From: Deltaproteobacteria bacterium
GTDB lineage: Bacteria; Desulfobacterota; Binatia; UBA12015
Direction of reading: 5' to 3'
Assembly: GCA_029262355.1 (NCBI GenBank)
Contig: JAJCZO010000416.1
Span: 74,973-138,972, forward strand
Length of the DNA: 64,000 bases
Under the pieces are notes generated by a model. The model saw only the letters and a list, made by a program, of their open reading frames with translations, was not told the origin of the DNA and did not search any database. Below are positions 13,077-49,208 of the stretch, in pieces. Position numbers and translations under genes: made by a program. Each line of letters opens with the position of its first letter. The first letter of the stretch is position 1.

Positions 13077-14512
13077 GCCTGCGTCGCGCGGTCGCAGCCG
13101 CATTGACGCTGGCGCTCATGGGTTGCCCCGTCGGGCCAGACTACGAACCGCCGGAGATTCATTCGCCCGAGGAGTTTCGGGCGGTCGTGCCCCCCCATCG
13201 GGCCGAATCTCTGGCCGATCTGCCGTGGTGGGATCTGTTCGAAGATCCAGGTCTCCAGCAGCTCGTGTCGCGTGCGATCGAAGGGAACTACGACCTGCGC
13301 GCCGCCGCGGCTCGCGTCCGGCAATCCTCCGCGTTCGTCGGCGTGGCGCGGTCCGAACTCCTCCCCCAGGTGGGTTATGATGGGAGCGGCGCGCGCCAAC
13401 AGTCCGTGATCGTTCCGACCCTACCGCCGCAGACGTTCAACCTCTTCAGCGGCGCGTTCAATCTCGCATGGGAGATCGACCTCTGGGGCCGCATCCGACG
13501 CGCGACCGAGGCCGCGGAGGCGGGCCTCCTCGCCACCGAGGAGGCGCAGCGCGGCATCCTGTTGTCCTTGGTGAGCGGCGTGGCCGAGGCCTACTTCCGA
13601 TTGATCGAGCTCGATGCGGAGCTCGCCATCTCGCGCTCGACCGTAGGGTCGTTTCAAAAATCGCTCGATCTCTTCAACCGTCGTTACAAAGGCGGCGTGG
13701 GGTCGGACCTGGCCGTCGCGCGCGCCGAGGCCGCGCTGGCGAACGTCGCAGCGACGATTCCCGCGCTCGAAACGCAGGTCGTGACGACGGAGAACGAGAT
13801 CAACCTACTCTTGGGTCGCGAACCGGGTCCGGTGCCTCGTGGCCGAGTGCTCACGGCGCAGCAGACGCCGCCCACGATCCCAGCCGGTCTCCCGTCGGAG
13901 CTTCTGACCCGCCGGCCCGACCTGCGCCAAGCGGAGGATCGCATCCGTGCGGCCAACGCGGAGATCGGTGTGTCGGTGGCGAATTTCTTCCCGCGTATCG
14001 GCCTCTCGAGTCTCTATGGCTCGAGTTCGACCGATCTGTCGGACATGCTGAACGGCACTTTCGGCGTCTGGGGAATCGCCGCTCAGATCACCGGCCCGAT
14101 CTTCACGGGTGGGCGCAACTACGAGCAGTACCAGGCGCAGGTCGCCGCGTGGGAGACCGAGGTCGCGCTGTATGAACAAGCCGTTCTGCAGGCCTTCTCA
14201 GAGGTCTCGAACGTGCTCACGGCGCAGCAGAACCTCATCCAGGAGCGCGCCGCCACCCAACGCGAGGTGGACGCGCTGAAGCGATCGGTGCATCTCTCCT
14301 TTCTGCGCTACGACATCGGCCTCGCCGACTATTTCGAGGTCCTCGAAGCGCAGCAGCAGCTGTTCCCCGCCGAGCTCGACCTCGCCCGCGTGGAGCGCGA
14401 CCAGCTGCTGGCGGTAGCACGGCTGTACCGCGCGCTCGGAGGAGGCTGGGAACTCGAGATGGCCGACTGGCAGTGGCCGAAGCCGACGCCCAGTCCGTCA
14501 CCGTCGTCGTAG
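13073..14512 (+). CDS. efflux transporter outer membrane factor, NodT/OprM/TolC family lipoprotein
   Basis: ATGA overlap with the RND pump stop. Lipoprotein signal with lipobox (LMGC). Two OEP repeats and the conserved proximal motif (CPVGPDYEPP). The upstream extension of the ORF to 12407 is rejected. Confidence 0.85.
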   Translation: MSLRRAVAAALTLALMGCPVGPDYEPPEIHSPEEFRAVVPPHRAESLADLPWWDLFEDPGLQQLVSRAIEGNYDLRAAAARVRQSSAFVGVARSELLPQVGYDGSGARQQSVIVPTLPPQTFNLFSGAFNLAWEIDLWGRIRRATEAAEAGLLATEEAQRGILLSLVSGVAEAYFRLIELDAELAISRSTVGSFQKSLDLFNRRYKGGVGSDLAVARAEAALANVAATIPALETQVVTTENEINLLLGREPGPVPRGRVLTAQQTPPTIPAGLPSELLTRRPDLRQAEDRIRAANAEIGVSVANFFPRIGLSSLYGSSSTDLSDMLNGTFGVWGIAAQITGPIFTGGRNYEQYQAQVAAWETEVALYEQAVLQAFSEVSNVLTAQQNLIQERAATQREVDALKRSVHLSFLRYDIGLADYFEVLEAQQQLFPAELDLARVERDQLLAVARLYRALGGGWELEMADWQWPKPTPSPSPSS

Positions 14513-14564
14513 AGCCCTGGACCGCAACTGGCCGGTTCCGCTAAAGCCATGTCTCGTTCCCAGA

Positions 14565-14638
14565 GCCCCCGTAGCTCAGTTGGATAGAGCGCAGGATTCC
14601 TAATCCTGAGGCCGCGTGTTCGAGCCACGCCGGGGGCA
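14565..14638 (+). tRNA. tRNA-Arg (anticodon CCT)
   Basis: Cloverleaf read directly: acceptor GCCCCCG/CGGGGGC, D-arm GCTC-AGTTGGATA-GAGC, anticodon arm CAGGA-TTCCTAA-TCCTG (anticodon CCT), T-arm GCGTG-TTCGAGC-CACGC, discriminator A. No encoded CCA. Coordinates +/-2 nt. Confidence 0.85.
14596..14638 (+). repeat. attL: island-proximal copy of the 43-nt tRNA-Arg 3'-end direct repeat
   Basis: Bases ATTCCTAATCCTGAGGCCGC and CGGGGGCA are identical to the copy at 24556..24598; the T-stem differs (CGTG/CACG versus CTGG/CCAG). Confidence 0.75.
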
Positions 14639-14654
14639 GTGTAAAATCAAGTAC

Positions 14655-15737
14655 TTACGTTTTTGACGGCTTCGGCATCGGAACGATTTGCCCCGTTTTT
14701 GCCCCGTTTCCATCGGTGACGCGCCCGGCGGCGCGCCGGAGGTCGTCTTCGTTGATGACGTTGTATCGCTCGAAGACCGTGCGCGTGCGCCAGCCGCCTA
14801 TCTTCATGATGACTGCTTCGCTCTCGCCGCTGCGGCGGTAATTGCGAGCCATGGTGCGCCGAAAATCGTGCGGTCGTCGACCCGGCACACCGGCGCGCTC
14901 ACAGGCGCGTCGCCAGACCTTGTAGGGGAAGAACTCGACGGGCTTGCCGTCCCGGTGGAAGACTCGCGAAATGATCGCGTTCTTCTGACGCTCGACCGCG
15001 CTGGTGCGGTCGCGCCACCGCTTGATGACGTCGAGCGCTTCGACAGGCAGGTAGACGAGCCTGCCGTCCTTGTTCTTGGTCGTCCCGATCCCGAGTCGGA
15101 TCGTCCCGGCTTCGAGGTCGACCTGTCGCCACTCAAGGCGAAGTAGCTCGCTGCGCCGGAACCCTACCCAATACGCCACCGTAACGAGGGGCCGAAGGAA
15201 GTTGTCGGGAAGCTCGGCGAGCAAGCTATCGAACTCCGCGCGCTCGAAGAACACCTCGCGGGCGTTGTTGACGCTGATGGAAGGGAAGGGAGGTACGCGA
15301 AAGAGTTTTCCCGCTTTGAAGCCCACGCGGAACGCCCTTCGGAGACAGGCCAACTCGCGTTGCAACGTGGCGGGCTTCGCCTTCTCTGCAAGGCGTTGCT
15401 CAACGTAGTGCGTGAGCCGCGTCATGGTCACGGCCAAAGCCAGGTCGCTGCCAAAGACGGGTTTTAGGTGTGCCCAGCGCTGGATGACGTCCCTCTCGTT
15501 GAAACCGTTCACGCGGTAGTTGCGGCGGAGGTCCTCGATCAGCTCGGAGACGCGGGTCTTCGCAGCGTTCGGCTCGTAGAGCCCCTGGCGCATTTCCACT
15601 AGCCGCTTGTCACGCATCTCCTTTGCCTCCTTGCGCGACTTTGCGTTGGTGGGTTCCTCCCGACGCTTTCCGTTTCCCAGCGGAAGGCGAATGTACCACA
15701 CGGTGCCTCGGAGCCTCACTCCGTCGCGGCGCTTCAT
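14655..15737 (-). CDS. int: site-specific tyrosine integrase (phage/P4-type)
   Basis: 360 aa. N-terminal SAM-like/core-binding region. Catalytic residues in HDFRRTMARNYRRSG and the Tyr nucleophile region IGGWRTRTVFERYN. Lies 16 nt from the tRNA-Arg 3' end. Confidence 0.9.
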   Translation of the reverse strand: MKRRDGVRLRGTVWYIRLPLGNGKRREEPTNAKSRKEAKEMRDKRLVEMRQGLYEPNAAKTRVSELIEDLRRNYRVNGFNERDVIQRWAHLKPVFGSDLALAVTMTRLTHYVEQRLAEKAKPATLQRELACLRRAFRVGFKAGKLFRVPPFPSISVNNAREVFFERAEFDSLLAELPDNFLRPLVTVAYWVGFRRSELLRLEWRQVDLEAGTIRLGIGTTKNKDGRLVYLPVEALDVIKRWRDRTSAVERQKNAIISRVFHRDGKPVEFFPYKVWRRACERAGVPGRRPHDFRRTMARNYRRSGESEAVIMKIGGWRTRTVFERYNVINEDDLRRAAGRVTDGNGAKTGQIVPMPKPSKT

Positions 15738-15916
15738 CGGTGGCCTCCTCTCTTTCGTAGGAACTCCGCGACCGCTTTGCGGATCAGGTCTCTGACGTTC
15801 GAATCTTCGTCGACCGCCAAGTGGCGAAGACTGCGGTACATGTCGCGTTCCAGCGAAACGGTGGTCGTCACCATGTCCGTGGCCTTCTTCTTGCCTGGGC
15901 GCCGCTTCGTCGCCAT
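15734..15916 (-). CDS. ribbon-helix-helix (CopG/Arc-like) DNA-binding protein, possible excision/regulatory factor
   Basis: 60 aa, basic N-terminus, then a predicted beta-strand followed by two helices (VSLERDMYRSLRHLAVDEDSNVRDLIRKAVAEFL). 4-nt overlap with the integrase start. Confidence 0.55.
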   Translation of the reverse strand: MATKRRPGKKKATDMVTTTVSLERDMYRSLRHLAVDEDSNVRDLIRKAVAEFLRKRGGHR

Positions 15917-15947
15917 TGCCGTATGATAGTATGCTAGTACGCTCGTA

Positions 15948-16157
15948 TCAACGAGCAGATACGGATTCGCCGTAGGCAGGAAGGTTCAGGAGAAACTTCT
16001 CGACGTCGCGCCTGAGCCAGAGGGGTTGTCCGAGGAGACTTCGGCCGGGAGGCAGGTCGTCAGTGTGATGATCAACCCAGCTCCTCGACCGCCCCAGCAT
16101 GCGTGCGACCTGGGCGCTATCCAAGAGACGCTCTCCGTGATCGCCCTGGCAGCCCAT
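15948..16157 (-). CDS. AlpA/excisionase-family helix-turn-helix (HTH_17-like) protein
   Basis: HTH segment LLDSAQVARMLGRSRSWVDHH. The roughly 70-aa size matches AlpA/Xis-type proteins of P4-like elements. The ATG at 16157 is preferred over the TTG-initiated 137-aa version (15948..16361). Confidence 0.5.
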   Translation of the reverse strand: MGCQGDHGERLLDSAQVARMLGRSRSWVDHHTDDLPPGRSLLGQPLWLRRDVEKFLLNLPAYGESVSAR

Positions 16158-16593
16158 AGTTCCTGAGGAGATGTGGAGTCGGAGAGCCTCGCGGAGCACC
16201 TGAAATCTGGCGATGGTCGCGTCACAGTCCGAGAGCAGGTGAGCAGCCACTGCCGGCGGCAGTCTCGCGACGCCCTCCGGCCGCTCCGCGATCTCATCGA
16301 GGCTCGGCACTGGTCGAAGGTCACTCACTGAATCAGCTCGATCCAGCACGAGCCCGCACAATCTCCTGCGACACGCAGCCCGATCTGCGCCAGGGAGCCC
16401 CGCTCTGCTCGCGTTCGAGGTACTCGCCCACCGTCTGGGGTTCTAATCAGCCCGACGGATCGTGATCGGCAGCACCCTGGCGCATCACGGCTTTGGAGAG
16501 CGCCGAGCGCATCGGTCGAGAGAAGCGCCTTGCTCACCCCCAGGGACTCGGCTCGACGGGGCCTTTTGCCTACTTCTCCTGCTTCTCCGGCGC

Positions 16594-17097
16594 TCACGAG
16601 GCGAGCCACACTCTCACGCCCGTCCGGCGAAGCTCCGCGAGCACCGCCTCCAGCTCCTCGGCTAGTCGTTCCACCCCTGCGTCGTCGTCAGCGTAGAGCC
16701 GGTTCATCGCGGCGACAGCCACCAGCGCCCTGGCCACGAGGTCGGGGCGGTCGGTCGAAGGGGGTGCGTCCCCTGCGACGCGGAAGGGGCCGTCGTCGTC
16801 GAGCGTCCAGACCCACGGCTCGGCCGGGCCGTGGACCATCTCGGCGTTGATCTCGTCGGCAGCCCTGCGGTCGGCCTCGTCGGGCGTGAGTCCCTCGGCC
16901 GCCTCCAGCAGCGCGGCTCGGGCGGCCCACCGGGAGAACACCCAAGGAGGCCAGTCCGACGGGTCCGGGCCGAGGGCTCCCGCCTCCAGGCCGCCCCCGT
17001 CGTGACGGGGAGTCTCGGGGCTCGGCGCCACAGCCTGCGGGGCCGAGGCCAGCCCCCTTTCGGCGATGATCTTCTGAGCGAGCGCGAGGTAGCTCAC
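16594..17097 (-). CDS. hypothetical protein (island cargo), about 167 aa from a putative GTG start
   Basis: Open frame with high third-position GC. Start chosen at the GTG preceded by AGGGGG; the longer ORF (to 17226) would read through a strongly structured intergenic element. No recognisable domain. Confidence 0.35.
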   Translation of the reverse strand: MSYLALAQKIIAERGLASAPQAVAPSPETPRHDGGGLEAGALGPDPSDWPPWVFSRWAARAALLEAAEGLTPDEADRRAADEINAEMVHGPAEPWVWTLDDDGPFRVAGDAPPSTDRPDLVARALVAVAAMNRLYADDDAGVERLAEELEAVLAELRRTGVRVWLAS

Positions 17098-17209
17098 GGC
17101 CGAACCCCCTGCAGGAAAAGCAGGGAAAGGGGGCGAAAGCCCCTCCGAGGTGACCCGTTGCCTGCTTTTCTTGCCTTGCAGGCAGCCCCCGCGCCGTCCC
17201 ACCGGGGGG
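17098..17209. other. structured intergenic element: nested GC-rich hairpins (inner GGGGC-GAAA-GCCCC stem-loop within a roughly 16-bp interrupted stem, plus a flanking CCCCC...GGGGG hairpin)
   Basis: Read directly: CCTGCAGGAAAAGCAGG ... GGGGGCGAAAGCCCC ... CCTGCTTTTCTTGCCTTGCAGG, then CCCCCGCGCCGTCCCACCGGGGGG. Lies between the stop of the DUF3987-like gene and the start of the downstream hypothetical gene. Confidence 0.4.
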
Positions 17210-18388
17210 TCATGACTGCGACCCATCCCTGCTCTTGCGCCGCTCCAGGATCTCGACGGGGCGGCCTCCCGTGGGCTCGACGCGCACGCGCCACTCGGGC
17301 GAGCTGGTGAGCACCTGGATCGCTTTGTTCAGGTTCGCGGCCGAGATCCGGTCACCGAAGAGGGTCTCACGGATCCCTGAGCGGGACATCTCCCCGCCGG
17401 GCGGGATGGCCTCGGCGATCCGGTCGGCGTCGCGGTTGCCGGACCGACCGGAGAACACGGTGCGCACGCTGGCCTCGCAGTAGTCCCAGACCGCCAGCGC
17501 GGACTCCAGGTGGGGGACGTCGATCTCGGCCCGGCCGTCGAGCAGCGCATACAGGAGCGAGAGGCGAAGCACGTGGGCCTCGGCTCGGGCGAGCAGGTCT
17601 CCGATCAGCCCTGGGCGGTCGGCGGACAGCTCCGCGTACATGCCGCGCCACAGGTGGTCGGCGGCTGGCGTGCGCCGCACAACTCCCAGCAACTTGGCAG
17701 CGTCCAGGGCCTCGCGGGTGCGCCGGCCCAATTCGTCACGCTCGTGCTGGGGCACCACCCCAGGCGAGGGGAGCAGCTTGCCCCGCGTCACGAGCACCAC
17801 GAGGAAGCGGTTTCCCAGTCCGTTGGCCGCGTCGGTGTCCGACAGGTACCTCTCCAGGTCGGCGAGGGTCGAGTGCGCGATTACGGCGATGTGAGCACCA
17901 GTCGCGCGGGTCGGCGAGTTCTTCGTCAGGGTGCCTAGGCTCTCATCCCCATCCCAGACGGCGCGCAGTACGGGCGACAACGTGTTGCCGTCCCGTTGCA
18001 TTGCCTTCAGAGCCCCGGCAAATTCCGATTCGCTCACCAGTAGGCGCTTGTCGTCCACGCCGGGGTCTACGACTTCCATTTCGCCCTTCTTGTTCGGTCG
18101 CTCGATCTTGTCGCGAACGGAATGGATCAACCCCTCGCCGGACGAGAGGCCCGACGACACCAGTAGCGTGGGGTCGGCATCCTGCACGGTGCGCAGCGCG
18201 ACTTTCTTGCTGTCCCCCTTCCGTGCTCGCGCCGACTTGCCGACCAACAGCAGCGACTCATTCGTGTAGTGGCGTGTTTCCCCGACGCACACGTGCGCTG
18301 TTCGCCCCACGGCCGCTCCGAACGCGACCAAGAACTGCAGCAGGATCGCTGCCGGTGCTGCCTCGGTGTACGGCAGGTAGGCTCGCAC
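17210..18388 (-). CDS. DUF3987/YfjI-like protein (primase-associated family typical of P4-like integrative elements)
   Basis: 392 aa. N-terminal hydrophobic segment followed by a GKS-containing region (LLVGKSARARKGDSKK). The size and this region resemble DUF3987. Gene context (integrase + AlpA) matches CP4-57/P4-like islands. Assignment is by pattern memory, not a database search. Confidence 0.4.
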   Translation of the reverse strand: MRAYLPYTEAAPAAILLQFLVAFGAAVGRTAHVCVGETRHYTNESLLLVGKSARARKGDSKKVALRTVQDADPTLLVSSGLSSGEGLIHSVRDKIERPNKKGEMEVVDPGVDDKRLLVSESEFAGALKAMQRDGNTLSPVLRAVWDGDESLGTLTKNSPTRATGAHIAVIAHSTLADLERYLSDTDAANGLGNRFLVVLVTRGKLLPSPGVVPQHERDELGRRTREALDAAKLLGVVRRTPAADHLWRGMYAELSADRPGLIGDLLARAEAHVLRLSLLYALLDGRAEIDVPHLESALAVWDYCEASVRTVFSGRSGNRDADRIAEAIPPGGEMSRSGIRETLFGDRISAANLNKAIQVLTSSPEWRVRVEPTGGRPVEILERRKSRDGSQS

Positions 18389-18392
18389 TACA

Positions 18393-19226
18393 TCACCGGC
18401 GAGTCCTCGCAGTGCCTGAGTCGCCTGCCGCGAGGCCTATCTCGCCAAGCCACCATGGCGACGTCGCGCCCGTCTTCTCGTCGTAGTCGGCCATGTCGCA
18501 CGCGATCCAAGAGCCGCTCTTGGACGTTACCTCGCAGTCGCGGAAGACGATCTGCTTCCCAGCGGACAGACGGGTCAACGCAGCCCGCATCTCCGCGGGA
18601 TAGTATAGCCAGTACTTTCCGTACTCGTCGGGTGCTTCGAGTCCATCCTTCGGATCGAGCATTGTAGGAATCAGCACGACAGCGATGCACTCGTTCCCGC
18701 CATACTTGGATTGCACGTTGCTTTCGCGCAGGCAGGGCGTCACCTCATCGACACGACCGGCCCCGTAGAGCGACAGCTCACGTGCATCTCCGGGCTGCCC
18801 CTTGCCGGACACGTCATCCATCAACTCGCGCACCTGCTCGCCTACCGAGGTCTCCTCCTCCGGCAGCACCGTGCCGAAGATCGCCTTCTTGAAGGGCGCC
18901 AGCGAGTCGCGCCGCCAGCGCGCCTTTCGTTCCTTGACGGAGTCGAGTTGCGGAGAGCCATCGCGTTGAAGATCGGTGAGCGCCGCCTCCGCCTCCCTGA
19001 TGGCCCGCTCCTCATCCAAGATCCGCGAATCCCATTCGTCGATCGCCTTCCACGTGATCCCTGCGGGCGGCGCACGATCGACGGTCGGCGTTGGCGTCGG
19101 CAGAGCGCGAACCGGCTCACCTCGGGAGCATCCACACACGAGGGCTGTCGTGAGAACGCACGTGACACTGAGCCTTGCGGTGAAATGTGCCATTCTAGTG
19201 TAGCGTTTCCTAAATAGCTGTAACAT
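18393..19226 (-). CDS. hypothetical lipoprotein (island cargo)
   Basis: Signal peptide with lipobox-like LVCGCS. 4-nt spacing to the downstream DUF3987-like gene suggests co-transcription. Start could instead be the internal Met (about 19193). Confidence 0.5.
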   Translation of the reverse strand: MLQLFRKRYTRMAHFTARLSVTCVLTTALVCGCSRGEPVRALPTPTPTVDRAPPAGITWKAIDEWDSRILDEERAIREAEAALTDLQRDGSPQLDSVKERKARWRRDSLAPFKKAIFGTVLPEEETSVGEQVRELMDDVSGKGQPGDARELSLYGAGRVDEVTPCLRESNVQSKYGGNECIAVVLIPTMLDPKDGLEAPDEYGKYWLYYPAEMRAALTRLSAGKQIVFRDCEVTSKSGSWIACDMADYDEKTGATSPWWLGEIGLAAGDSGTARTRR

Positions 19227-19254
19227 ATCCAGTGCCCGCGACGTCTATCTCAGC

Positions 19255-19887
19255 ATGGGGTACAAGGCGGATGTGCGGCTGGTGAAGAAGGATCGAAAGG
19301 TCTTGGAGTCCTGGCTTCGAGCGCCGACGATTTCCCAGGAGATGGCGCTGCGAGCAAAGATCCTCATCGCCAGCGCCGATGGCGAAGCCATTCGGCCCCT
19401 GGCGACGCGACTGGGCATCTCACCCACCACGGTGTGCCTGTGGCGGCGTCGCTACGAGAGCGAAGGGCTGGCGGGCCTTGGTACGCGACACCGTAGCGGG
19501 CGCAAGAAAAGCAAGGTGACACCGGCCAAGGAGCGAGCGGTCGTCGCCGCCACGATGAAGGAGCCCAAAGACACGACCCACTGGAGCACGCGTCGTCTGG
19601 GCAAGAAGGTTGGGCTCAGCAACGCCACCGTGTACCGGATCTGGCGCAAGTACGGGCTCCAGCCGCACCGGGTCCAGACCTTCAAGTTCAGCACCGATCC
19701 CGACTTCGACGCCAAGCTGGCCGATGTCATCGGGATCTACCTCGACCCTCCAGAGCGCGCCCTGGTCCTGTGTGTGGACGAGAAATCTCAGATCCAAGCG
19801 CTTGATCGCACCCAGCCCCTGCTGCCGATGCGGCCAGGGCTTCCGGCTCGGATGACGCACGACCACGAGCGCGTACGATCGACGTGA
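19255..19887 (+). mobile_element. truncated IS630-family transposase gene (N-terminal HTH region and start of the DDE domain only)
   Basis: N-terminal HTH/winged-helix region (ISPTTVCLWRRRYESEGLAGL ... LSNATVYRIWRKYGL) and first catalytic Asp region (LVLCVDEKSQIQAL), then premature termination at 210 aa; the family is normally about 340-370 aa. Confidence 0.7.
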
Positions 19888-19958
19888 CGAGCGGGCGGCT
19901 CAGCGAGCGGCCGCCCTGATTCACGTTCCGTACGTTCGCAGGGTCGTGGGCGACTGAC

Positions 19959-21230
19959 TCACCCGAGGACCTCGGCCGCGCCCTCGTTGAGGAGCCATGG
20001 AGCGCCGGTCATCTCGAACGCACCCATTGGCCATAGCGCTGCGCGCTGCCAGCCCTGCTCTTCGGTGAAGCGGTTCCAGAAGGTGCGTATCGAGTCCAGG
20101 GCGGCTCCTCGGATCCACTCGGGTGGAACACGCCAGGCCACGACGGCAAGGCACTCAGGGCGCTTCTTGAGCTGCTTCTCCAATCCGAGCCGGGTGAGGA
20201 CCTTGGCGAATGCAGTCTCGGCGTCGCTGTCAAAGGTCTGCTGATGGAACGCAAAAAGGGAGCCTGGTTCCCATGCGCCCTTCTCAAAGATGTCGCAAGG
20301 TCGCGCGTGAAGCTCGATCTCACCCGGTCGGTCTCTCGATAGGATGAAGTCGACTCCCTCGGGCCTCTGCGCGCCATCGTTCCAGCCGGTGGAGGCGGCC
20401 AGCCGGTAGCCCTCGGCATCCAGTAGAGGAATGGGATCGGCCATGAGCGCGATGCCGGTCTTCAGCAGCTCCTCGACCTCGCTCAAGTTTCCTTGAAGGG
20501 CACCGACGAGCATCAGCACATCCTTGTCTCGCGCATCGGTGGGTAGCTCCCACGTCCACAAGTACCGGGTAAGAAACGAGGCATGCGGGGCCATCCCCAG
20601 CCCGCCCAGCATGGCGGAGGCCAGAGTTGGGACGTAGCTCGGGTCTTTCTTGAACTTGACCTCAACCGGAAGCACTTCCTGGCGTTCAACCAGCCAGTCC
20701 GGCTCGCCTGGCTTTCGATCTACTGTGCGTGGAAGCCACCCCTCACCGGTCAGCTTGTCCAGAGCCCACCATTCGGCCTGCGCGGAATCCAAGTCGGCCG
20801 TGAGAGCAAGCGGGCTCTTGCCTGCGACGGAGCGCTCCTCCAGCGGGACGGCAACCGGCCAGTCGTCGCCTGCGGCTGCGATGAGACGCTCGAACATCGC
20901 GCGGTGTTCGGGAAACAGCTCCTTCGGCCGCTTGAAGGGAAAGACAACCTCCACGAGTTCTCGAACGTGTTCTACAAGTAGGGCTTCTGCCCCGAAGACA
21001 CCGACGATCTGCTGAAGGTGCTCGACAAATGGGCGAAGCGCTGGTGCGGCCGACACGTCCAGCACCCTGTCCTGCCAATCCGGCGGAAGCGTTCGGACGG
21101 GTATCACAGAGAGATAATACGTACTGTCACGGTAGCGATCCAGTATCGGCGCACCGTCTTCCGCTCCGCAGCGCTCGGTGCTCAGGTCGCCGCCGTCGCG
21201 GATCGCCTTCTTGATCCGAAAGACCCGCAC
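19959..21230 (-). CDS. hypothetical protein, 423 aa (island cargo, no recognisable domain)
   Basis: Long ORF with consistent coding bias, no signal peptide, no motifs I can assign. Co-directional with the upstream secreted 172-aa ORF. Confidence 0.5.
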   Translation of the reverse strand: MRVFRIKKAIRDGGDLSTERCGAEDGAPILDRYRDSTYYLSVIPVRTLPPDWQDRVLDVSAAPALRPFVEHLQQIVGVFGAEALLVEHVRELVEVVFPFKRPKELFPEHRAMFERLIAAAGDDWPVAVPLEERSVAGKSPLALTADLDSAQAEWWALDKLTGEGWLPRTVDRKPGEPDWLVERQEVLPVEVKFKKDPSYVPTLASAMLGGLGMAPHASFLTRYLWTWELPTDARDKDVLMLVGALQGNLSEVEELLKTGIALMADPIPLLDAEGYRLAASTGWNDGAQRPEGVDFILSRDRPGEIELHARPCDIFEKGAWEPGSLFAFHQQTFDSDAETAFAKVLTRLGLEKQLKKRPECLAVVAWRVPPEWIRGAALDSIRTFWNRFTEEQGWQRAALWPMGAFEMTGAPWLLNEGAAEVLG

Positions 21231-21424
21231 AAGGCCATGATGGAGATCGTGCGAGAGGGGGATGAGATTCGCGTCGCGCTTGGTGGGTATTACCGGGCTG
21301 GCGCGAGTTCACCGGACGCGTTGGTCGTCGGGTAGAGGTCGAGCCGGCGAGCCGGAGGTTGAAGAGGCTACCCAGTAGACCGCGTCGACGGGTGGAGGAG
21401 GTGCTGGGTGTCACCGTCTGCCAT

Positions 21425-21943
21425 TCAGTTTAGGGGGCATCGTTCGGTCGGAATGCTCGGGGGCGTCGCGTCCGTGCGGACGAGGCGGATGGTGCAGACG
21501 GTCTGGACGAAGTCGAAGCCACGCACCTCTGCCACCATCTTCCCGCTGATACCCTTCCGGTTCTGGGGGAACACTCGTCCGCGTCTCAGGACCATGGTCG
21601 AAGCTCCGGTCTTGGCGGAGCACGGCTGGAGCGTGCCCCCCGCCAGGTGGCTTCCCTTCGGTGCCTTCGTAGAGATGCCGCCGGCGAATGTGCCGCCGCC
21701 GAAGAAGCCCGATACATTCTCCGCGAACTCGCCGATCTGGGCGTCGGCAGCGAGTAGCAGTGGTTCCCGCGCAAGCTCGACCGGTACCCGGCGGCCGTCG
21801 GGCCAAAGGAACGTGCAGTTGAAGGGACCAGGGTCGCGTTGCTCCCACGTGCCCTCGAAGCTTCCTCCAAGGGCTGGTCTGGCGAGTAGTATCGATGGCA
21901 GTGCCAGAATGCAGAAAGCGAGAAATCTGTTTCGATTCGTCAT
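21425..21943 (-). CDS. hypothetical secreted protein, 172 aa (island cargo)
   Basis: Clear N-terminal signal peptide (MTNRNRFLAFCILALPSILLARPALG). Gly-rich mature region. No recognisable domain. Confidence 0.5.
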   Translation of the reverse strand: MTNRNRFLAFCILALPSILLARPALGGSFEGTWEQRDPGPFNCTFLWPDGRRVPVELAREPLLLAADAQIGEFAENVSGFFGGGTFAGGISTKAPKGSHLAGGTLQPCSAKTGASTMVLRRGRVFPQNRKGISGKMVAEVRGFDFVQTVCTIRLVRTDATPPSIPTERCPLN

Positions 21944-22021
21944 GGCGTTTTCCTCATTCTATTGGGGGAAGGTCGGTAGTAACCCCAGCCGTATCGCACT
22001 GCGACGCGCTGGGGCCTGTCG

Positions 22022-22270
22022 ATGAAGCCTGACACATGTTGCCGACTCGCGCTATCGGAGTTCTTCGAGCCAGGCGGTGGGACGCGCGCTCGCCGCTTCG
22101 GCGTTGCCCACTTCGGCCTCCGGGTCGAGGACGTCGATGCGTCGGTCACGGAACTTCGGGCGGGCGGCGTCCGCATCCTCGGGCCGACCGTTCGGGAGCC
22201 GTCGGGGCTCACCTGCGCCTACCTGGCTGCTCCCGACGGGGTCGTGATCGAGCTGACGCAGTACGAGTAG
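22022..22270 (+). pseudogene. VOC (glyoxalase/bleomycin-resistance) family gene fragment, C-terminal half only
   Basis: 82-aa ORF matching only the C-terminal beta-alpha-beta-beta-beta module of VOC proteins (VAHFGLRVEDVDASVTELRAGGVRILGP ... VVIELTQYE). No N-terminal module upstream. Confidence 0.45.
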
Positions 22271-22374
22271 GGGAGGGGCGACCCTACGCTCATCGGCATG
22301 CGTCGGGGAGCACGCGGCCGTCGGGGAGATGGAGGAGGTCGACGCCGTTGTGGTCGATGGGTGAGGGGAGGTGA

Positions 22375-22907
22375 TCATCCACCCGCGATGCGGTCGAACA
22401 TCTTCCCAAGACGACGACTCCGGCGTAGCTGGTCGAGGATCACCGGCTCTTGCCAGCCTGTCGGCTCGAAGAGGTACTCCTCGTCCAGCTTCACTCTGCG
22501 GAGTCGGGCCTCTTCGAGCTGGGCGCGCCGCTCTCGGTTCCTCCGCGCACGGTCGATGTCGTGAGCTGGGGGCTCAAGGTTCGGGAAGGGCGGGAGCACG
22601 AGACCCATCCGTGCGCCGGTCTCGCCGGTGTCGAGAGCCATGCCGTCCGAGTCGACGTCGACCAGGCGTCCTTGGATATAGTGATGTCCGCCGTCAACCA
22701 GACCATGGCCGTGAGCCAGCGGAACACCCTGCGCCCGTCCTGGTCGGTGATCCAGCCCTCGGGGATGGGCTCGGCGTTCTCGCGGTAGCACGACCCCCAT
22801 GAGCTTCGTTGGAGACGTGCCATCCGCTCGCGTCCGACGTGAACCGGCTGCCCGTCCGGGGCGACGGCGTACTCTCGGGCGGTGAGGACTCGGGAGTCAT
22901 CGGACAT
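22375..22907 (-). pseudogene. frameshifted gene of unknown function (two overlapping ORFs that switch frame near 22700)
   Basis: ORF 22491..22907 has a plausible ATG start and high GC3 for its first part, which then decays. ORF 22375..22800 gains high GC3 from about 22700 onward. The pattern fits a single about 175-aa gene disrupted by a frameshift. Confidence 0.3.
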
Positions 22908-23654
22908 GGGGTATCGATACCCTTCTGGTCGGTGCTCGGTCCACGTCGCGAGCGGGCTCGGCGGTCATTGAGGGCGTGGATGGGGAGGGCGCGGTGACGG
23001 ACGAAGATCCAGGGTACGTTGTACGTTGAAGCCTCCGGGCCTGGAGCATCGAGAGGGCGATCGCCCTGTTGTGTCCCGACGATGTAGGCCGATGAAGTCG
23101 TGCCCGTGGCGGGCACCAGGCGGGCACGACCTGGCACTCTGGAGCACTTTCCGGGGGGTCGTACCGGCGAAAAGTGCTGAGGAGTGCTGAGACCTACTCG
23201 CCAGGGGATTTTCGATTCCCCCCGCCTTGAGACTACCGAAGGTAGCTGTGGAAGGGAGGCATGGACAGTCGTGCGATCGTCGCGATCGCTCGACGACGGT
23301 GGGCGCTCGACGCGCCGATCAACTCGCATGACTCTTGAGCGGACTCGGCTCCGCGGGGCAGAAACGCGGCAGGGGGCTCGGAACGCTTGCTGCGGAAGGC
23401 CGCGAGGGTGAGCGTCGGATAAGCAATCCTGTGGTCCGCCTGGAAAAACACGATTCATAGTTTAGCATGGGCCGTACCAAGCGGGTCACGAACAGCATAC
23501 CCTCGACGTCGATGGTCTCCGGATCGATCGGCTCGCCCACGAGGCGGTCTCTACACGGGTCGCCGATCGGAGGAGAAGGGGAGCCAGAGTACCATGCGCC
23601 ACCTGACAGCCGCCAGCACGTCGCCGTCGAGATCGCAGTAGCGACGGAGGAGAG

Positions 23655-24179
23655 ATGAAGTCGTTCCCTGCGCGATATCGGAAGACGATTGGCTCTCTGC
23701 TCATGGTGGCCGCATTTGTCGTGCAGTGGGTCTTGACGGAGTACGTCGAGCCCGCTGCCGAAGCGACGTTCAGCAATCCCGACACGTGCGGCGACACATC
23801 GTTGCAGACACAGAATCTGGAACTCCTCTTCCACGTCACTGGAGAACCCACGCATCTGCACGACGCCATTCGGACGCGGGCCCTCTTCTACTACGAGTTT
23901 CTCACATCGCCGGCTTTCGACGAGGCTACGGTAGACCATCGACTGGGGCCCGTCGCTGAGGCGATGACAGCCACGCCCGACACGTTCGAGGAGTACGCGA
24001 GGCTCAAGGTTTCCCTTGGGAAGCATGCCGGTCGACTCTGGGGGGACGAGTGGCGTCCTGGCGCGCAAGCCATCAAACGGCGTGGATTGTACCTCCGCGT
24101 TGCGATCTTCTTGGTGTCTCTACTGGGGCTCTTGCTCATCTGGAGTGGTGAGAACTTCGAAGGCCAGGGGAAGCAATGA
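23655..24179 (+). CDS. hypothetical membrane protein with N- and C-terminal TM helices (island cargo, lower-GC patch)
   Basis: ATG preceded by GGAGGAG. TM segments IGSLLMVAAFVVQWVL and LYLRVAIFLVSLLGLLLIW. Local GC is lower than the backbone. The overlapping minus-strand ORF 23319..24068 is rejected. Confidence 0.45.
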   Translation: MKSFPARYRKTIGSLLMVAAFVVQWVLTEYVEPAAEATFSNPDTCGDTSLQTQNLELLFHVTGEPTHLHDAIRTRALFYYEFLTSPAFDEATVDHRLGPVAEAMTATPDTFEEYARLKVSLGKHAGRLWGDEWRPGAQAIKRRGLYLRVAIFLVSLLGLLLIWSGENFEGQGKQ

Positions 24180-24555
24180 AGAACACCTCTGGATCCGTGG
24201 TCGATCGTCAAGTTGTCCCGGCCGATGATCGACGCGGTCCCGGCCGGCTGCGCCTCGCCACCGTTCAAAGCCCCGGAACTCCCGCAGCAGCTTCTCGTCC
24301 TCCAGGAGCCCGACGGTTCCGGCGCTCACCCGTGGCAGCAGATCGAGGCGTAGGGTCGAACGGTCGAGCGCTTTCGGGTGCGTGCACCGCCCCGTGCAAC
24401 GGCCTGCCCACCGGGAACGGGCGGCCTTGACTGCCCCGTTCTTGCCCCGCTTCGCGAGCAGAGCGTTGCAGTCCGTTGCAACGATAGGAGCACCGAGGGC
24501 TACGATCTTCGACCGTTTCGTTGTAGGACGCTGCAGATCGCTGCACCGGACGCGC

Positions 24556-24598
24556 ATTCCTAATCCTGAGGCCGCTGGTTCGAGTCCAGCCGGGGGCA
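24556..24598 (+). repeat. attR: partial tRNA-Arg 3' end (distal copy of the 43-nt direct repeat)
   Basis: ATTCCTAATCCTGAGGCCGCTGGTTCGAGTCCAGCCGGGGGCA reproduces the anticodon-loop-to-3' end of tRNA-Arg(CCT) with compensatory T-stem changes. No 5' half of the tRNA (GCCCCCG acceptor strand) is present upstream. Confidence 0.75.
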
Positions 24599-24952
24599 CC
24601 TTACACGGCATCCGGGCTGTCGAGCACGAGCCCCGTGGCGAACCTTCGTAGCCTCGAATTCTCGCGAATGAGACACGGGCCGCAGCCGCCTCCCAGGAGC
24701 GCGAATCACGGCCGCTGCGCAGCCTCTCGGCGCGCCCTGGTCGGGACGCCGGTTCGTGTTCGGGTTGCGCATGCGGCGTCGGCCGCGAGGCCGGACGGCG
24801 CCCATACTGCCCAAGAAGTTCGTGGAGCACCGGAGTCCCCGCGGGCTCGAGGCTGATTCTCGCGGTCGGCAATCGGGTCTTCTTGGTACGAGAGTTGCGG
24901 TTTGGATTCGCCCAGCGCCGCGCGAGATGTGGCCCGCAGGGAGGATCATCGA

Positions 24953-26356
24953 ATGAAGCAGGGTACTTGGCACTCGAGCCTCGGCGTCGTCATTGTGGCG
25001 GGTTTCACGCTGGCCATCGGCGCGCAGATCGCGTCGGCGGATCTGACCGAGGTCCAGGAGGCTCCCGACGGGACCATCCTGGGAGAGCAGAACTGGAAAA
25101 TCGCCGAGGGGCTGCTGCCCGCCGAGATCTTGAAGCTCTATCAGGACGGCGACTACGCGCACCCGATTCGCAAGCTCCAGGGCAAGAAGGGGAAAATCGT
25201 CGACCCGCGCCTGGTCGAAGCCGCCCGCAAGAACGCGGACCGCTTCGCGGTGAACGAGGCCGGTACGGTCGTCGACAAGAAGTCAGGTGTGCGACCGCCC
25301 GTCATCACCGGCTGGCCTTTCCCCGACATCGACGCCGACGATCCGAAGGCGGGGACGAAGGTTCTCTGGAACTACATCTACACGCTGCAGTGGGCGGGCT
25401 CGTTTCACACGGTCTCACCCCTCAACTGGGTGGATCGGCAACAGGGAATCCTGCGACGGATCGCGGTCGACACGCACTTCAAATACTACGACGGGCAGCC
25501 TCCGGAGATTCAAGAAACCATCGGCGACAACCCGCTCGGAATCTTGAATCGCACCATGGCCGTCGTGAAGGAGCCCTCGGACCTCCAAGGACTCATCAGT
25601 CTCAACTGGCGCTACCGCGATGGGGACAAGAGCGATCAGGCTTGGACGTACGTCCCGGCGCTGCGGCGCGTGCGATCGGTGAATCCCGCCAATCGGGCCG
25701 ACGGTTTCCTCGGCTCGGACCTCTCACAAGACGACGGCCCGTATTTCGACGGCAAGCCCGAAGACTTCGAGGTCAAGCTCGTCGGCGACGGTTGGATCCT
25801 TGCCCCTTTCGACAATCCCGGTCTCGACAAGGTGAGCCCGCCGACCCGCCTGACGGAGGACACGGAAATCTCGGATTTGATCGATGGAAGCACGACGGGC
25901 TGGCGTGTGAGCTATCCGAACGACATCCAGCTCATCGCGTCGCAGGGCGAAGGCTGGGATCCCAAGAGCGATCAGGTCTCCTGGTCGCCGACGCAGCTCG
26001 GCTTGGTGCCGCGCCCGGTTTGGATCATCGAGGCCGTTCCCAAGAACCCGTACTACATCTACGGCAAGCAGATCATGCACATGGACAAGGAGAACTTTCG
26101 CGGATACTGGAAGAGCAAGTACGACTGGAAGGGCAACGTGCTCTCCAACTACGCGCCTCCGGAATCACTGATCCACGAGATCCCGGGAGCCCCGGGGCAC
26201 ATGCGCATGGGCTACAGCGGCGGCGTCGCGATCGTGAACAACTTCAAGCAGGACCGCGCCACCGTCTCGGGCTTGCCCGTGGCCGACACCGAATGGTGGG
26301 TGGAGATGGACGACGGGCTGTTCGAGACCTCGCGGATGGTTCGTCAGGGGAAATAG
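24953..26356 (+). CDS. DUF1329 family protein (LolA-like fold, periplasmic/outer-membrane associated), secreted
   Basis: ATG with GGGAGGA 8 nt upstream. Signal peptide (MKQGTWHSSLGVVIVAGFTLAIGAQIASA). About 450-aa mature protein rich in W/Y/D/G, matching the size and character of DUF1329. Assignment from memory. Confidence 0.55.
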   Translation: MKQGTWHSSLGVVIVAGFTLAIGAQIASADLTEVQEAPDGTILGEQNWKIAEGLLPAEILKLYQDGDYAHPIRKLQGKKGKIVDPRLVEAARKNADRFAVNEAGTVVDKKSGVRPPVITGWPFPDIDADDPKAGTKVLWNYIYTLQWAGSFHTVSPLNWVDRQQGILRRIAVDTHFKYYDGQPPEIQETIGDNPLGILNRTMAVVKEPSDLQGLISLNWRYRDGDKSDQAWTYVPALRRVRSVNPANRADGFLGSDLSQDDGPYFDGKPEDFEVKLVGDGWILAPFDNPGLDKVSPPTRLTEDTEISDLIDGSTTGWRVSYPNDIQLIASQGEGWDPKSDQVSWSPTQLGLVPRPVWIIEAVPKNPYYIYGKQIMHMDKENFRGYWKSKYDWKGNVLSNYAPPESLIHEIPGAPGHMRMGYSGGVAIVNNFKQDRATVSGLPVADTEWWVEMDDGLFETSRMVRQGK

Positions 26357-44613: not shown

Positions 44614-45297
44614 CTACGAAGGGCTTCGGCGGATTGCCGCGGCCCCTAGAGCCCGAGCAGACCTTGGCCCCCCGAGGGCAAGGGGATGAGGGTCGGCCCA
44701 GATCGAAATCTCTTTAGTTGTCATAATCTATCTTATCGGACCCAATGACACGCCGCGGATGCTCGCTTTTGAGCCTCGAACTCCCGCGGGCGAGGATTCT
44801 GTGGAGCGTCCTTCGTGGCGCCAGACTGCGGATTCCGACGAGGCCAGACGGACGCGTCGCCGACGGACGGATCGAGAAGGCCGCTGGGCGCCCACCGCTC
44901 CGCTGAGCTGAGCTCCTCGCGCGTCGCCCCCTGACCACCTTGCCGCAGGCCTTTCGCGCACGCGCGGCCACACTCCCTGTGCCTTGCCGACGCGATCGGA
45001 GATCCGTGATCGGAAGCAACCCGCGTGTAGGCGCAGTTGTGGACACGGCCCGTTACGCCCTCGTGTTGATCCAACGGCCAGAAGACCGAGCGCCGCACGG
45101 AGCCTGCCCATTGCGGTACCGCTACGAGCTGCTGGCCTCGCGCTCGACCATACGGTGGCTCGCGCTTGCATCGAGATCGAGTCCGTAGACCCGCTTCAGG
45201 TCCTGGATGACCTCGAGTTCCGCGGGCCCGAATGGGGGCGCCTTGCCCTAGGTGCTGCAAGCACCCCTGCCGTATGCCTCGAAACTCCCTTCCGAAA

Positions 45298-46029
45298 CTA
45301 CTGCGTCTGGAACTGCAGCGGGTTGAGGCCGCCGAACTGCGAGGCCGGCGCTTCTGGGGGCGTGCCTCCCAGGGCGATGAGCCGGGCCCGCGCAAATTCC
45401 TTGGCGGGCCCCTGCGGGTTGTCCTCCAGGTAGACTCCGTACAACTCCACCGCTCGCTCCTTCGCGCCACCGGCCTCCTCGACCTGTGCTAGCTCGATCG
45501 TGACCTCGGGCTTGGCCGGGCCGGCGAGTTCGCGCGCGGCGTCGAGTTCGGTTCGCGCCGCCGCGGTGTCGCCTTTCTTCGCGAGGGCGCGGCCCAGGTT
45601 CAGGCGGGCAAGCTGCTGTAGCGGCACGGTGGTCGAGCCACCGAGGAACTGGCGATAGAACTTGATCGCATCGTCCGGCTTGTCGAGCTGGAGCGCTGCG
45701 CGGCCGGCGTACAACGTGGCGAGTCGCCCGTAGTCGGTACCGCCGAGATCGTTCGCCAGAGCGACGAAGCCGTCATACGCCTCCGACCACTGGTCGGCCT
45801 GGTAGAGCTCGATCGCCGAGTAGAACTGTCGGTTGGCGGTTGCATTGCGAGACGAGATCCACCAGCTCACTCCGATGATGAGGAGGAGTACGGCGACGAG
45901 ACCCGCCGCGCCATATTTGACGATAGCCTGATTCTGTTGCGCCCACTCGACGACCTTACCGGTCGCCGTGACGAACTCGTCCGGCTGCTTCAGATCCTTA
46001 TGGGAGGGTCGCTTGACGCGCGCGCTCAT
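45298..46029 (-). CDS. YfgM-like TPR membrane protein (N-terminal single TM, periplasmic TPR domain)
   Basis: Short basic N-terminus, TM (AAGLVAVLLLIIGVSWWI), then TPR-like repeats. Architecture typical of the YfgM/ancillary SecYEG translocon subunit family. Confidence 0.5.
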   Translation of the reverse strand: MSARVKRPSHKDLKQPDEFVTATGKVVEWAQQNQAIVKYGAAGLVAVLLLIIGVSWWISSRNATANRQFYSAIELYQADQWSEAYDGFVALANDLGGTDYGRLATLYAGRAALQLDKPDDAIKFYRQFLGGSTTVPLQQLARLNLGRALAKKGDTAAARTELDAARELAGPAKPEVTIELAQVEEAGGAKERAVELYGVYLEDNPQGPAKEFARARLIALGGTPPEAPASQFGGLNPLQFQTQ

Positions 46030-46090
46030 TGTCTACACATCCTCATCTGGGCGGCTCCGTGCGAGAGATCTCTTGCTCTCGAGGGCCGCG

Positions 46091-46609
46091 TTACATCTTG
46101 TACTTGAAGTCGCCCGGCGCCATCCGGTCGAGGATGTCGGCCCACTTCTCTGGCGAGATATCGGAGAGGTTCTGCTCGTGGCCCTCTTCCTGCTCCTGCT
46201 GCAGGATGCTGGACTGTTCGAGAACCTTTTTGGCTACATAGATCGGGCACTTCGAGCGAATGGCGAGCGCGAGTGCGTCGCTCGGGCGAGAGTCGATGCT
46301 CATCTCGCGATCGGCGACCCTCAAGTGAATGGTCGCGTAGAACGTGTTGTCCTTGAGGTCGCTCACCTCGACCGCCTCGACGGTGGCGTTGAGCTCGCCG
46401 ATGATGGTTTGCAGGAGATCATGGGTCATCGGCCGCGCCACCTCGATGTTCTCGAGCTCGGTGGCGATGGCGGTTGCCTCGAGCAGGCCGATCCAGATCG
46501 GAAGATTGATCTTGTTGTCGGCGTCACGCAGAACGACGATCGGCGTCTTCGTCGCCGGATCGAGCGTCAGCCCGTCGAGGCTCATTTCTATCGAGTCTGC
46601 AGGATTCAT
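46091..46609 (-). CDS. bifunctional nuclease (BFN/DUF151) family protein
   Basis: Conserved BFN-domain core (TPIVVLRDADNKINLPIWIGLLEATAIA ... RPMTHDLL ... SRPSDALALAIR). Confidence 0.65.
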   Translation of the reverse strand: MNPADSIEMSLDGLTLDPATKTPIVVLRDADNKINLPIWIGLLEATAIATELENIEVARPMTHDLLQTIIGELNATVEAVEVSDLKDNTFYATIHLRVADREMSIDSRPSDALALAIRSKCPIYVAKKVLEQSSILQQEQEEGHEQNLSDISPEKWADILDRMAPGDFKYKM

Positions 46610-46673
46610 GCCGTCCGCCGCCTAGCACCCTTCCTACCCATGCACTCTCGCGTGGTCAACGGTTCGGAGGGCC

Positions 46674-48095: not shown

Positions 48096-48152
48096 GGGAT
48101 CTCCTCGTCACGAGCCGCTGGCCGAGCACCAAGAGGTGCCCTGCCCTAGGGC

Positions 48153-49127: not shown

Positions 49128-49208
49128 CGGAACCTCGCGAAAAAACGAACTAAAACACAGGCCCCGAAGCAAGACAACGCGGTAACGTCTACGCTATTCT
49201 CGACGATC

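Follow-up and report, generated by a model that had tools for sequence, protein, structure and literature searches.

What is the origin of the partial copy of an arginine tRNA gene that lies some 10 kb away from the complete gene in the genome of an uncultured, high-GC bacterium? The two copies are found in a stretch of 64,000 nucleotides of contig JAJCZO010000416.1 (Deltaproteobacteria bacterium, positions 74,973 to 138,972), hereafter called the window. A first-pass annotation, made from the letters alone, had noticed the tRNA gene, the integrase gene next to it and the distant repeat, and had proposed that they delimit a genomic island. Our analysis leads to the same answer. We consider it likely that the locus contains a 9,960-bp integrative element inserted in the arginine tRNA gene, and that it is an ordinary kind of tRNA-targeting genomic island. 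The sequence shows its anatomy, its repeat structure, the relationships of its gene families and the folds of its proteins; the direction of integration is inferred.

The complete tRNA-Arg(CCT) gene lies at 14565..14638 on the + strand, where it is called by both ARAGORN and Rfam (RF00005 at 69.7 bits). It is the single tRNA that ARAGORN calls in the 64 kb, and an Rfam scan of the region 13.5-26 kb gave no other RNA. The last 43 nt of the gene, from the last base of the 5' strand of the anticodon stem to the discriminator base, make up the attL core (14596..14638, + strand). As the first-pass annotation had noted, they recur at 24556..24598 on the + strand, where the displaced 3' fragment of the tRNA forms the attR core. 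The two copies constitute a direct repeat with 38 identical positions out of 43, of which the first 20 are an exact match. This exact 20-nt core, ATTCCTAATCCTGAGGCCGC, has just two sites in the 64 kb, even when 3 mismatches are allowed, and shuffled sequences give an expectation of 0.00. No third copy of the tRNA fragment was found in the window at ≤3 mismatches. Since the first 20 nt are identical at attL and attR, the crossover must fall within them. A second, independent tRNA gene at 24.5 kb, the alternative that the first-pass annotation had itself named, was ruled out by ARAGORN, by Rfam and by folding. The 74 nt ending at 24598 have no tRNA-like fold (z = +0.7), which means that the 5' half of the tRNA is absent at attR.

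We reconstructed the putative attB site by joining the sequences on both sides of the element (14400-14595 and 24556-24900). In this reconstruction, ARAGORN calls a tRNA-Arg(CCT) and the minimum-energy fold is a cloverleaf: a perfect tRNA-Arg(CCT) results when the 5' half (14565-14595) is placed in front of the distal fragment. On the reciprocal junction, i.e. the predicted attP, ARAGORN calls no tRNA. The mismatches between the two repeats are also informative, as all five are in the T-arm. Four of them correspond to two adjacent base pairs that were exchanged in a compensatory way, giving the T-stem GCGTG/CACGC in the intact tRNA versus GCTGG/CCAGC in the attR fragment, and the fifth is a base of the T-loop. 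Since both copies encode a valid T-stem, the differences fit two tRNA lineages, the native half of the host and the half borne by the element, and not random decay. The regenerated tRNA would be made of the 5' half of the host and a 3' half supplied by the element, and the attR fragment would be the native 3' part of the host gene. Both flanks of the island consist of ordinary chromosomal genes.

The gene closest to the tRNA encodes a tyrosine integrase of 360 aa (14655..15737, - strand; PF00589 at 1.6e-19, phrog_1 at 7e-52). It reads toward the tRNA, in agreement with the initial description, and its stop codon is 16 nt from the tRNA 3' end. The catalytic residues R194, K221, H290, R293, and Y325 are invariant in an alignment of 12 members of the family. 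It is accompanied by two small genes on the same strand. The first encodes a ribbon-helix-helix (RHH) protein of 60 aa (15734..15916; PF01402 at 1e-5, with matches to Arc-like phrogs), whose stop codon shares the ATGA at 15734-15737 with the start codon of the integrase gene (int). The second encodes a helix-turn-helix (HTH) protein of ~127 aa (15948..16331), which is a candidate excisionase or regulator given its match to phrog_66, 'excisionase and transcriptional regulator', at 2e-4. Its match to HTH_17 (E = 0.067, 13.9 bits) is below the cutoff of 27 bits, and hhalign gives it a probability of 6% against AlpA. When its profile was searched against the PDB, it matched only HTH domains of ParB, non-significantly, and its single-sequence AF2 model was unusable (pLDDT 49.7). 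The RHH, DUF3987 (PF13148), and IS630 (NF033545) entries of the first-pass gene list stand, the last two being described below, and the 'AlpA-like' label of the HTH protein holds less well. The 3' end of the HTH gene contains, immediately ahead of the RHH-int pair, a sigma-70-like promoter sequence (TTGATA-17-TATCAT, 15923-15951, - strand), the single match in 14.4-25 kb where 0.9 are expected by chance.

The relatives of the integrase show how common this arrangement is. An exact-protein look-up returned no record for the integrase, nor for the DUF1329 protein of the right flank, and ~1,600 relatives of the integrase were found at E ≤1e-20. We retrieved the genomic contexts of eight of them (loci labelled L below). 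In L017 (72% identity), 8 nt separate the integrase gene from the 3' end of a tRNA-Arg(CCT) gene, with the geometry of the window. The integrases of L101 and L102 (53%), L103 (48%), and L106 (60%) adjoin the 3' end of a tRNA-Leu(TAA) gene (L101:6546-6632, L103:2141-2227, and L106:1658-1744), again with the same geometry. The family has switched targets between tRNA-Arg(CCT) and tRNA-Leu(TAA). Every locus that extends upstream of int has there a gene of ~120-137 aa, 39-45% identical to the HTH protein of the window, and all of these loci but L106 have a gene of 52-62 aa that overlaps the start of int. Homologues of the RHH protein itself were found in L017, L018, L101, and L103. Chromosomal-looking genes confine the element with the integrase P0004 (73% identity) to ~7 kb, which indicates that the family is made of small elements. 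These elements, of about 7-10 kb, are found in uncultured high-GC bacteria, and they keep the int-RHH-HTH trio and swap their replication modules. Viral collections contain more distant integrases: the best relatives in IMG/VR have ≤42% identity and are at the ends of viral contigs of 35-44 kb, and the nearest integrases of GenBank phages, those of P2-like Burkholderia phages, have 28% identity.

The element also has paired short repeats next to both cores. On the P' arm, inside the 3' end of int, TGCCCCGTT is repeated directly in tandem with an 11-nt spacing (14689..14710, + strand; layout TGCCCCGTT-N2-TGCCCCGTT). On the P arm, 102 nt to the left of the attR core, a tandem with the same 11-nt spacing reads TGCCCCGTT-N2-TGCCCCGCT (24432..24453, + strand). 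These sequences share the consensus TGCCCCGYT, whose exact occurrences in the 64 kb (four out of four) all fall in the two tandem pairs beside the att cores, and the 17-nt pattern of the pair has no further exact match in the window. In the reconstructed attP, the pairs are in the same orientation, 102 nt away on one side of the core and 50 nt away on the other. They are probably arm-type integrase sites, because related integrase genes have conserved this motif at their 3' ends, and we regard them as candidates for this role. On the int strand, the motif takes the form GGGGCA-N5-GGGGCA and is present ~40-60 nt before the int stop codon in six of the seven genes of the family (window, L017, L018, L103, L105, and L106), with three copies in L018. 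The int gene of L101 has a different 8-mer instead, TGAGGGAA, duplicated at the same 11-nt spacing. The two hexamers of the motif are read in different codon phases. Furthermore, glycine is encoded by GGG in 12 out of 12 codons of the motif and alanine by GCA in 6 out of 6, versus 28% and 19% over the genes as a whole. This bias and the two phases point to a constraint acting on the DNA, with the P' sites embedded in the C-terminal codons of int. Read on the int strand, the P-arm pair of the window is GGGGCAAGAACGGGGCA, which fits the motif of the family and thereby ties the right boundary to the same type of element.

Next to the integration genes lies the putative replication module, which in the window consists of a single DUF3987-family protein of 392 aa (17210..18388, - strand; PF13148 at 6.4e-13, with helicase/primase matches among the phrogs). 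DUF3987 proteins are helicases that partner Prim-Pol enzymes in the replication of mobile elements (PMC11724360), and this protein is predicted from its sequence to be a full-length replicative helicase. Its residues 1-381 are 47% identical to the product of a phage gene in the IMG/VR fragment L143, and an N-terminal truncation was ruled out. The phage fragment (L143:237-6817) encodes, in this order, a Cro-like HTH protein, a Prim-Pol/PriCT_1 protein, the DUF3987 homologue, an HNH protein, TerL, and the portal. This gene order indicates that the lineage of the window's helicase is associated with phages and normally follows a Prim-Pol gene. The replication genes found beyond the trio vary between elements of the family: an AAA_25 protein of 820 aa, a Prim-Pol with a 678-aa protein, a Toprim-DUF3987 protein of 826 aa, or an HTH_17 protein with a DUF3631 one. 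We found no homology between the DUF3987 protein of the window and the replication proteins of L017, L018, and L101.

These components suggest how the element would have integrated. The process would be a lambda-style recombination, catalyzed by the tyrosine integrase, into the segment of the chromosomal tRNA-Arg(CCT) gene that goes from the anticodon loop to the 3' end. The attP of the element would have carried its own copy of the 3' portion of the tRNA, such that integration regenerated the tRNA at attL and displaced the native 3' part to attR. Strand exchange would occur inside the 20 identical bases, which include the anticodon loop, with the integrase probably bridging the core to the tandem TGCCCCGYT sites of each arm. 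The RHH protein, whose translation is coupled to that of int, and the HTH protein would be the likely directionality or regulatory factors, and the DUF3987 helicase may replicate the excised circle. Given that the att cores and the arm pairs are intact, as are the three integration genes, the element may still be able to excise.

Several of our results weigh against this interpretation. The GC content of the island is 0.648, compared with 0.651 in the rest of the window, and its tetranucleotide deviation reaches z ~2 at 16-22 kb, a value that is equalled or exceeded at 9-13 kb and 45-50 kb. The patches of lower GC reported by the first-pass annotation are thus not distinctive. The empty attB was not found in any of the collections searched. 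The DUF1329 flank, used as a query on the genomes of GTDB, led to 16 loci that show neither a tRNA nor synteny. An exact-match scan of metagenomes for the native 43-mer gave 0 matches, and the 80 loci that the OEP flank identified in metagenomes all lack a downstream tRNA. The best long match among the relatives of the OEP flank is of 66%, and there is one match of 84% on a contig of 1.3 kb. The comparison with an empty site could not be completed because these collections hold no relative with a syntenic tRNA-Arg locus. Within the family, the closest relative for which we have DNA (L105, integrase 77% identical) shares the HTH-RHH-int trio and the arm motif (L105:1091-2268), but its complete tRNA-Arg(CCT) is on the strand of int, with 12 nt between the 5' end of the tRNA and the stop codon of int. 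This orientation is the opposite of that of the window and of four other relatives. It could result from integration on the 5' side, from an inversion, or from a mis-assembly of this short contig, and it has no effect on the geometry of the window itself. The arm motif also codes for a peptide, NGAxxGQ, that is itself conserved, and a constraint at the level of the protein may still contribute to its conservation. The N-terminal 75 aa of the integrase have no match to an arm-binding domain in Pfam, which leaves the binding partner of the arm sites as a supposition. Searches of L017, L018, L101, and L102 recovered no attR end with which the P-arm site could be compared, because the contigs stop inside the elements. 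Finally, the Prim-Pol partner of the nearest DUF3987 homologue was not found in the window.

The uniform composition and the missing empty site are in line with the absence of any mobile element, in which case the 43-nt repeat would be a partial duplication of the tRNA or a product of chance, and the integrase an unrelated neighbor. We regard this as extremely improbable. The chance count of the 20-nt core is 0.00, the T-stem differences are compensatory, the arm repeats are paired, and the integrase family recurs at tRNA genes, such that the statistics of the repeat and the context of the family effectively refute it. The proposal of a tRNA-targeting integrative element is instead upheld by the reconstructed attB, the compensatory T-stem, the repeats on both arms, and the relatives at tRNA genes.

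What does the element carry? Its genes are all on the - strand from int up to 19.2 kb. They include, besides those described above, an open reading frame (ORF) of 210 aa between the HTH and helicase genes (16594..17226; GC content at third codon positions, GC3, of 0.82) and a putative lipoprotein of 277 aa (18393..19226; GC3 0.75), in which a lipobox-like LVCGC was read by eye. A fragment of an IS630-family transposase follows on the + strand (19255..19887), with residues 1-210 of 356 and without the catalytic half. It covers positions 2-179 of the 299 of the NF033545 profile and is 96% identical to P0129 over residues 1-210 only. We found no further homology downstream of it, and the fragment falls short of a complete IS630, which would have a full transposase with a DDE catalytic domain and both terminal repeats. 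After the gene of the 423-aa protein discussed below come an ORF of 172 aa with an N-terminal signal-like peptide (21425..21943, - strand; GC3 0.75), the C-terminal fragment of a glyoxalase/VOC gene, a pseudogene remnant that matches only positions 59-121 of the 121 of the PF00903 profile (22022..22270, + strand), and a membrane-looking ORF of 174 aa with hydrophobic ends (23655..24179, + strand; GC3 0.73). The ORFs of 210, 277, 172, and 174 aa have no match in Pfam, PHROGs, NCBIfam, or PADLOC, and the search of all island ORFs against these databases gave no profile of relaxases, secretion, capsids, or known defense systems. The last 3.3 kb, the right third of the island, are ~39% coding, as counted from the list of ORFs. 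Together, the truncated IS630, the missing primase partner, the fragment of VOC gene, and the gene-poor right third indicate internal erosion. In one relative of the family, L018 (integrase 64% identical), an intact glyoxalase-family gene of 237 aa (L018:3246-3959) is found beside three transposase genes; the glyoxalase fragment of the window has no detectable homology with it by tblastn.

Such erosion raises the question of whether the element was once much larger. It could be the remnant of a full-size prophage, in which an internal deletion associated with the IS630 removed the structural and lysis genes, leaving the int end, a part of the replication module, and the far cargo with attR. 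The truncated IS630 does mark a rearrangement between the replication genes and the cargo, and the right third is poor in genes and contains a gene fragment. The DUF3987 protein, now devoid of a Prim-Pol partner, is 47% identical to one encoded in a phage fragment with TerL and portal genes, and the distant integrase relatives (≤42%) are at the ends of viral contigs of 35-44 kb. However, the close relatives of the integrase (53-77%) are in small elements that lack structural genes over the 7-10 kb next to int, one of them being bounded at ~7 kb by chromosomal-looking genes, and the island has no detectable remnant of a phage structural gene. A prophage origin is thus less likely, and we rate it as unlikely. 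A composite origin is also less likely. The island would in this case be made of a small element, from int to ~19.2 kb, lying beside unrelated DNA or beside an older second element that supplied attR. The elements of the family appear to be of ~7 kb, the IS630 fragment separates a dense left part from a sparse right one, and the targeted tRNA genes of two relatives, L106 and L017, have elements on both sides. In L106, a second integrase of 357 aa (L106:1813-2886), associated with a DUF5906/TubC_N element, reads toward the 5' side of the tRNA, and in L017 there is an integrase fragment across the targeted tRNA (L017:11288-11599) that reads toward its 5' end. Yet, the window has one displaced tRNA fragment only, with no third copy at ≤3 mismatches, we found no remnant of a second integrase inside the island, and the P-arm repeat at 24432-24453 carries the motif of this integrase family. 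This makes a composite quite unlikely, and we retain a single integrative element with an eroded interior.

The largest and most unusual cargo gene of this element is the 423-aa ORF at 19959..21230 (- strand), which encodes a protein of a rare family with a PD-(D/E)xK nuclease-fold core and is a rare predicted nuclease. The cargo, to which the first-pass annotation had assigned no function, is in this respect less obscure than before. The true start of the protein is probably near residue 42. A word-indexed search with the protein returned itself alone, and a HMMER search on 1.84 billion representatives gave 40 relatives, mostly of 360-410 aa, that align from ~residue 44. Residues E132, E153, W154, D178, W179, K192, K194, and G210 are invariant in the family, position 190 is always E or D, and the fold is restriction-endonuclease-like, with the D...(D/E)xK motif conserved. 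Modeling by AlphaFold from the family alignment gave a confident structure (pLDDT 82.7, pTM 0.82), in which residues 1-41 are disordered. A Foldseek search of the model against the PDB and BFVD gave no significant match. The protein has no sequence-family match in Pfam, PHROGs, NCBIfam, or PADLOC, and no relative in IMG/VR. The PD-(D/E)xK superfamily includes CdiA-CT toxins, XisH-like proteins, type II and type IV restriction enzymes, and Hjc, from which the 423-aa protein differs by having extra N- and C-terminal domains that lack a structural match. It may reasonably be supposed that the protein acts as a nuclease, in defense or as a toxin, and the rare family is flagged as a candidate for such functions. 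Comparison of two relatives revealed no conserved neighbor or partner gene. One of the relatives, P0145 (L099:3147-6111), is directly upstream of a GmrSD_N gene, which is type IV restriction-like, and downstream of a gene encoding a 1005-aa protein without a match in Pfam, a context that hints at a defense island. Another is found among unannotated genes near an AAA/S8-peptidase pair.

How does the element compare with known systems? Regenerated tRNA genes and displaced fragments are known to mark the ends of islands (PMC4383910). The element shares with the Islander-class tRNA/tmRNA islands that have an anticodon-loop-type att the regenerated tRNA, the repeat of the displaced 3' fragment, the integrase reading toward the tRNA, and the same block of identity, from the anticodon stem-loop to the discriminator base. 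Nothing is different in principle. Relative to the characterized examples of this class, the specificities of the window are its clade of integrases and its uncultured host lineage with 65% GC, which are not among them, and the presence of arm-type repeats in the C-terminal coding sequence of the integrase itself. The first-pass annotation had also described the integrase module as P4/CP4-57-like. This description fits the order of the genes but not the integrase. The left end of CP4-57 in E. coli K-12 (ssrA-intA-yfjH-alpA-yfjI) has the same order, with a small-RNA gene as target, an integrase, an HTH factor, and a DUF3987 protein. In contrast, IntA has no significant BLASTP similarity with the integrase of the window (E = 5.4), whose nearest phage relatives are the P2-like ones at 28% identity, and YfjI is a borderline case (E = 0.076), its similarity being limited to the Pfam family that the two proteins share. 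Unlike CP4-57 and P4, the integrase of the window lacks the P4-type N-terminal domain (DUF4102), having only PF00589 and a weak match to Int_N. The absence of capsid-redirection genes, on the other hand, was confirmed, as there are none in the Pfam and PHROGs matches of the island ORFs. These matches also lack the genes of P4-like satellites (sid, psu, delta, eps, alpha primase), and the island ORFs have no match in Pfam or NCBIfam to genes of integrative conjugative or mobilizable elements (relaxase, coupling protein, type IV secretion, FtsK-like Tra).

The gene order is closer to that of the PICMI satellites than to that of CP4-57, the likeness to either being one of gene order only. The PICMI satellites of Vibrionaceae have the order int-iolg-alpA-up1-prim, in which iolg overlaps int by ATGA and prim is a DUF3987 gene, and they lie downstream of fis, with a size of ~6 kb and a transfer that depends on a helper phage (PMC10803314). 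The element of the window has likewise an integrase gene, a small gene that overlaps it by ATGA, an HTH gene, one gene without assigned family, a DUF3987 gene, and then the cargo, with no genes for capsid remodeling. It also shows the colocalization of a PF00589 integrase with a DUF3987/DUF5906 primase that is used to recognize PICMI. The differences concern the site, which is a tRNA-Arg gene and not the region downstream of fis, the size of 10 kb with at least 10 ORFs versus ~6 kb with about 6 genes, the HTH protein, which is below the thresholds of AlpA (PF05930) and HTH_17 (PF12728), the overlapping gene, which is a recognizable RHH, and the phylum of the host.

The element could accordingly be a phage satellite of the PICMI/PICI type, integrated for as long as no helper phage induces the HTH/AlpA-like factor. 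Induction would be followed by excision, for which Int and the small protein encoded by the overlapping gene would be used, replication by the DUF3987 protein, and packaging in the capsids of the helper. Such a lifestyle would refine the interpretation of the locus as a tRNA-targeting integrative element and does not exclude it. It is consistent with the gene order and the 4-nt ATGA overlap that match those of PICMI (PMC10803314), with the lack of capsid, conjugation, or relaxase genes, with a phage replication gene being the nearest homologue of the DUF3987 gene among the viral sequences searched, and with a cargo that includes a defense-like nuclease fold. Set against this, the membership of the HTH protein in AlpA is subthreshold (hhalign probability 6%), the site is a tRNA and not fis, the element has 10 kb and not ~6 kb, and its host does not belong to the vibrios. 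Neither a packaging signal nor a helper phage is known, and IMG/VR has no close relative (best integrase ≤42%). Overall, we find a satellite unlikely. A bolder proposal goes beyond the window: the int-RHH-HTH elements might form an undescribed family of minimal phage satellites, or of helper-dependent replicons, in uncultured high-GC lineages. Their arm sites would lie in the C-terminal codons of int, and their targets would alternate between tRNA-Arg(CCT) and tRNA-Leu(TAA). L105 hints that the side of the tRNA that is used, 3' or 5', might change as well. The 423-aa protein would be a new stand-alone anti-phage nuclease carried as cargo. We regard this as speculative and fairly unlikely.

These results leave the understanding of tRNA-targeting islands unchanged. 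The useful detail they add lies in the arm sites, the family, the switching between tRNA targets, and the cargo with a rare nuclease fold. They provide a mobile element with clear boundaries, from an uncultured lineage that has received little study, and define its att core, its candidate arm sites, and its compact module of integrase, RHH, and HTH genes. These could be tried as a tool for integration or serve to find related islands.

Two observations concern the surroundings of the element. DUF1329 genes, lipoprotein-sorting-like, are found a few kb away from the targeted tRNA in two of the relatives (L101:7496-8770 and L103:10940-12130) and in the window (24953-26356), in differing positions and orientations and without wider synteny. 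Elsewhere in the window, the region 45000-50000 has the lowest GC content (0.617) and the top tetranucleotide deviation (z = 2.4), and thus deviates more than the island; among its genes are those of a VWA_CoxE protein (46674-48095) and of an AAA_5 ATPase (48153-49172).

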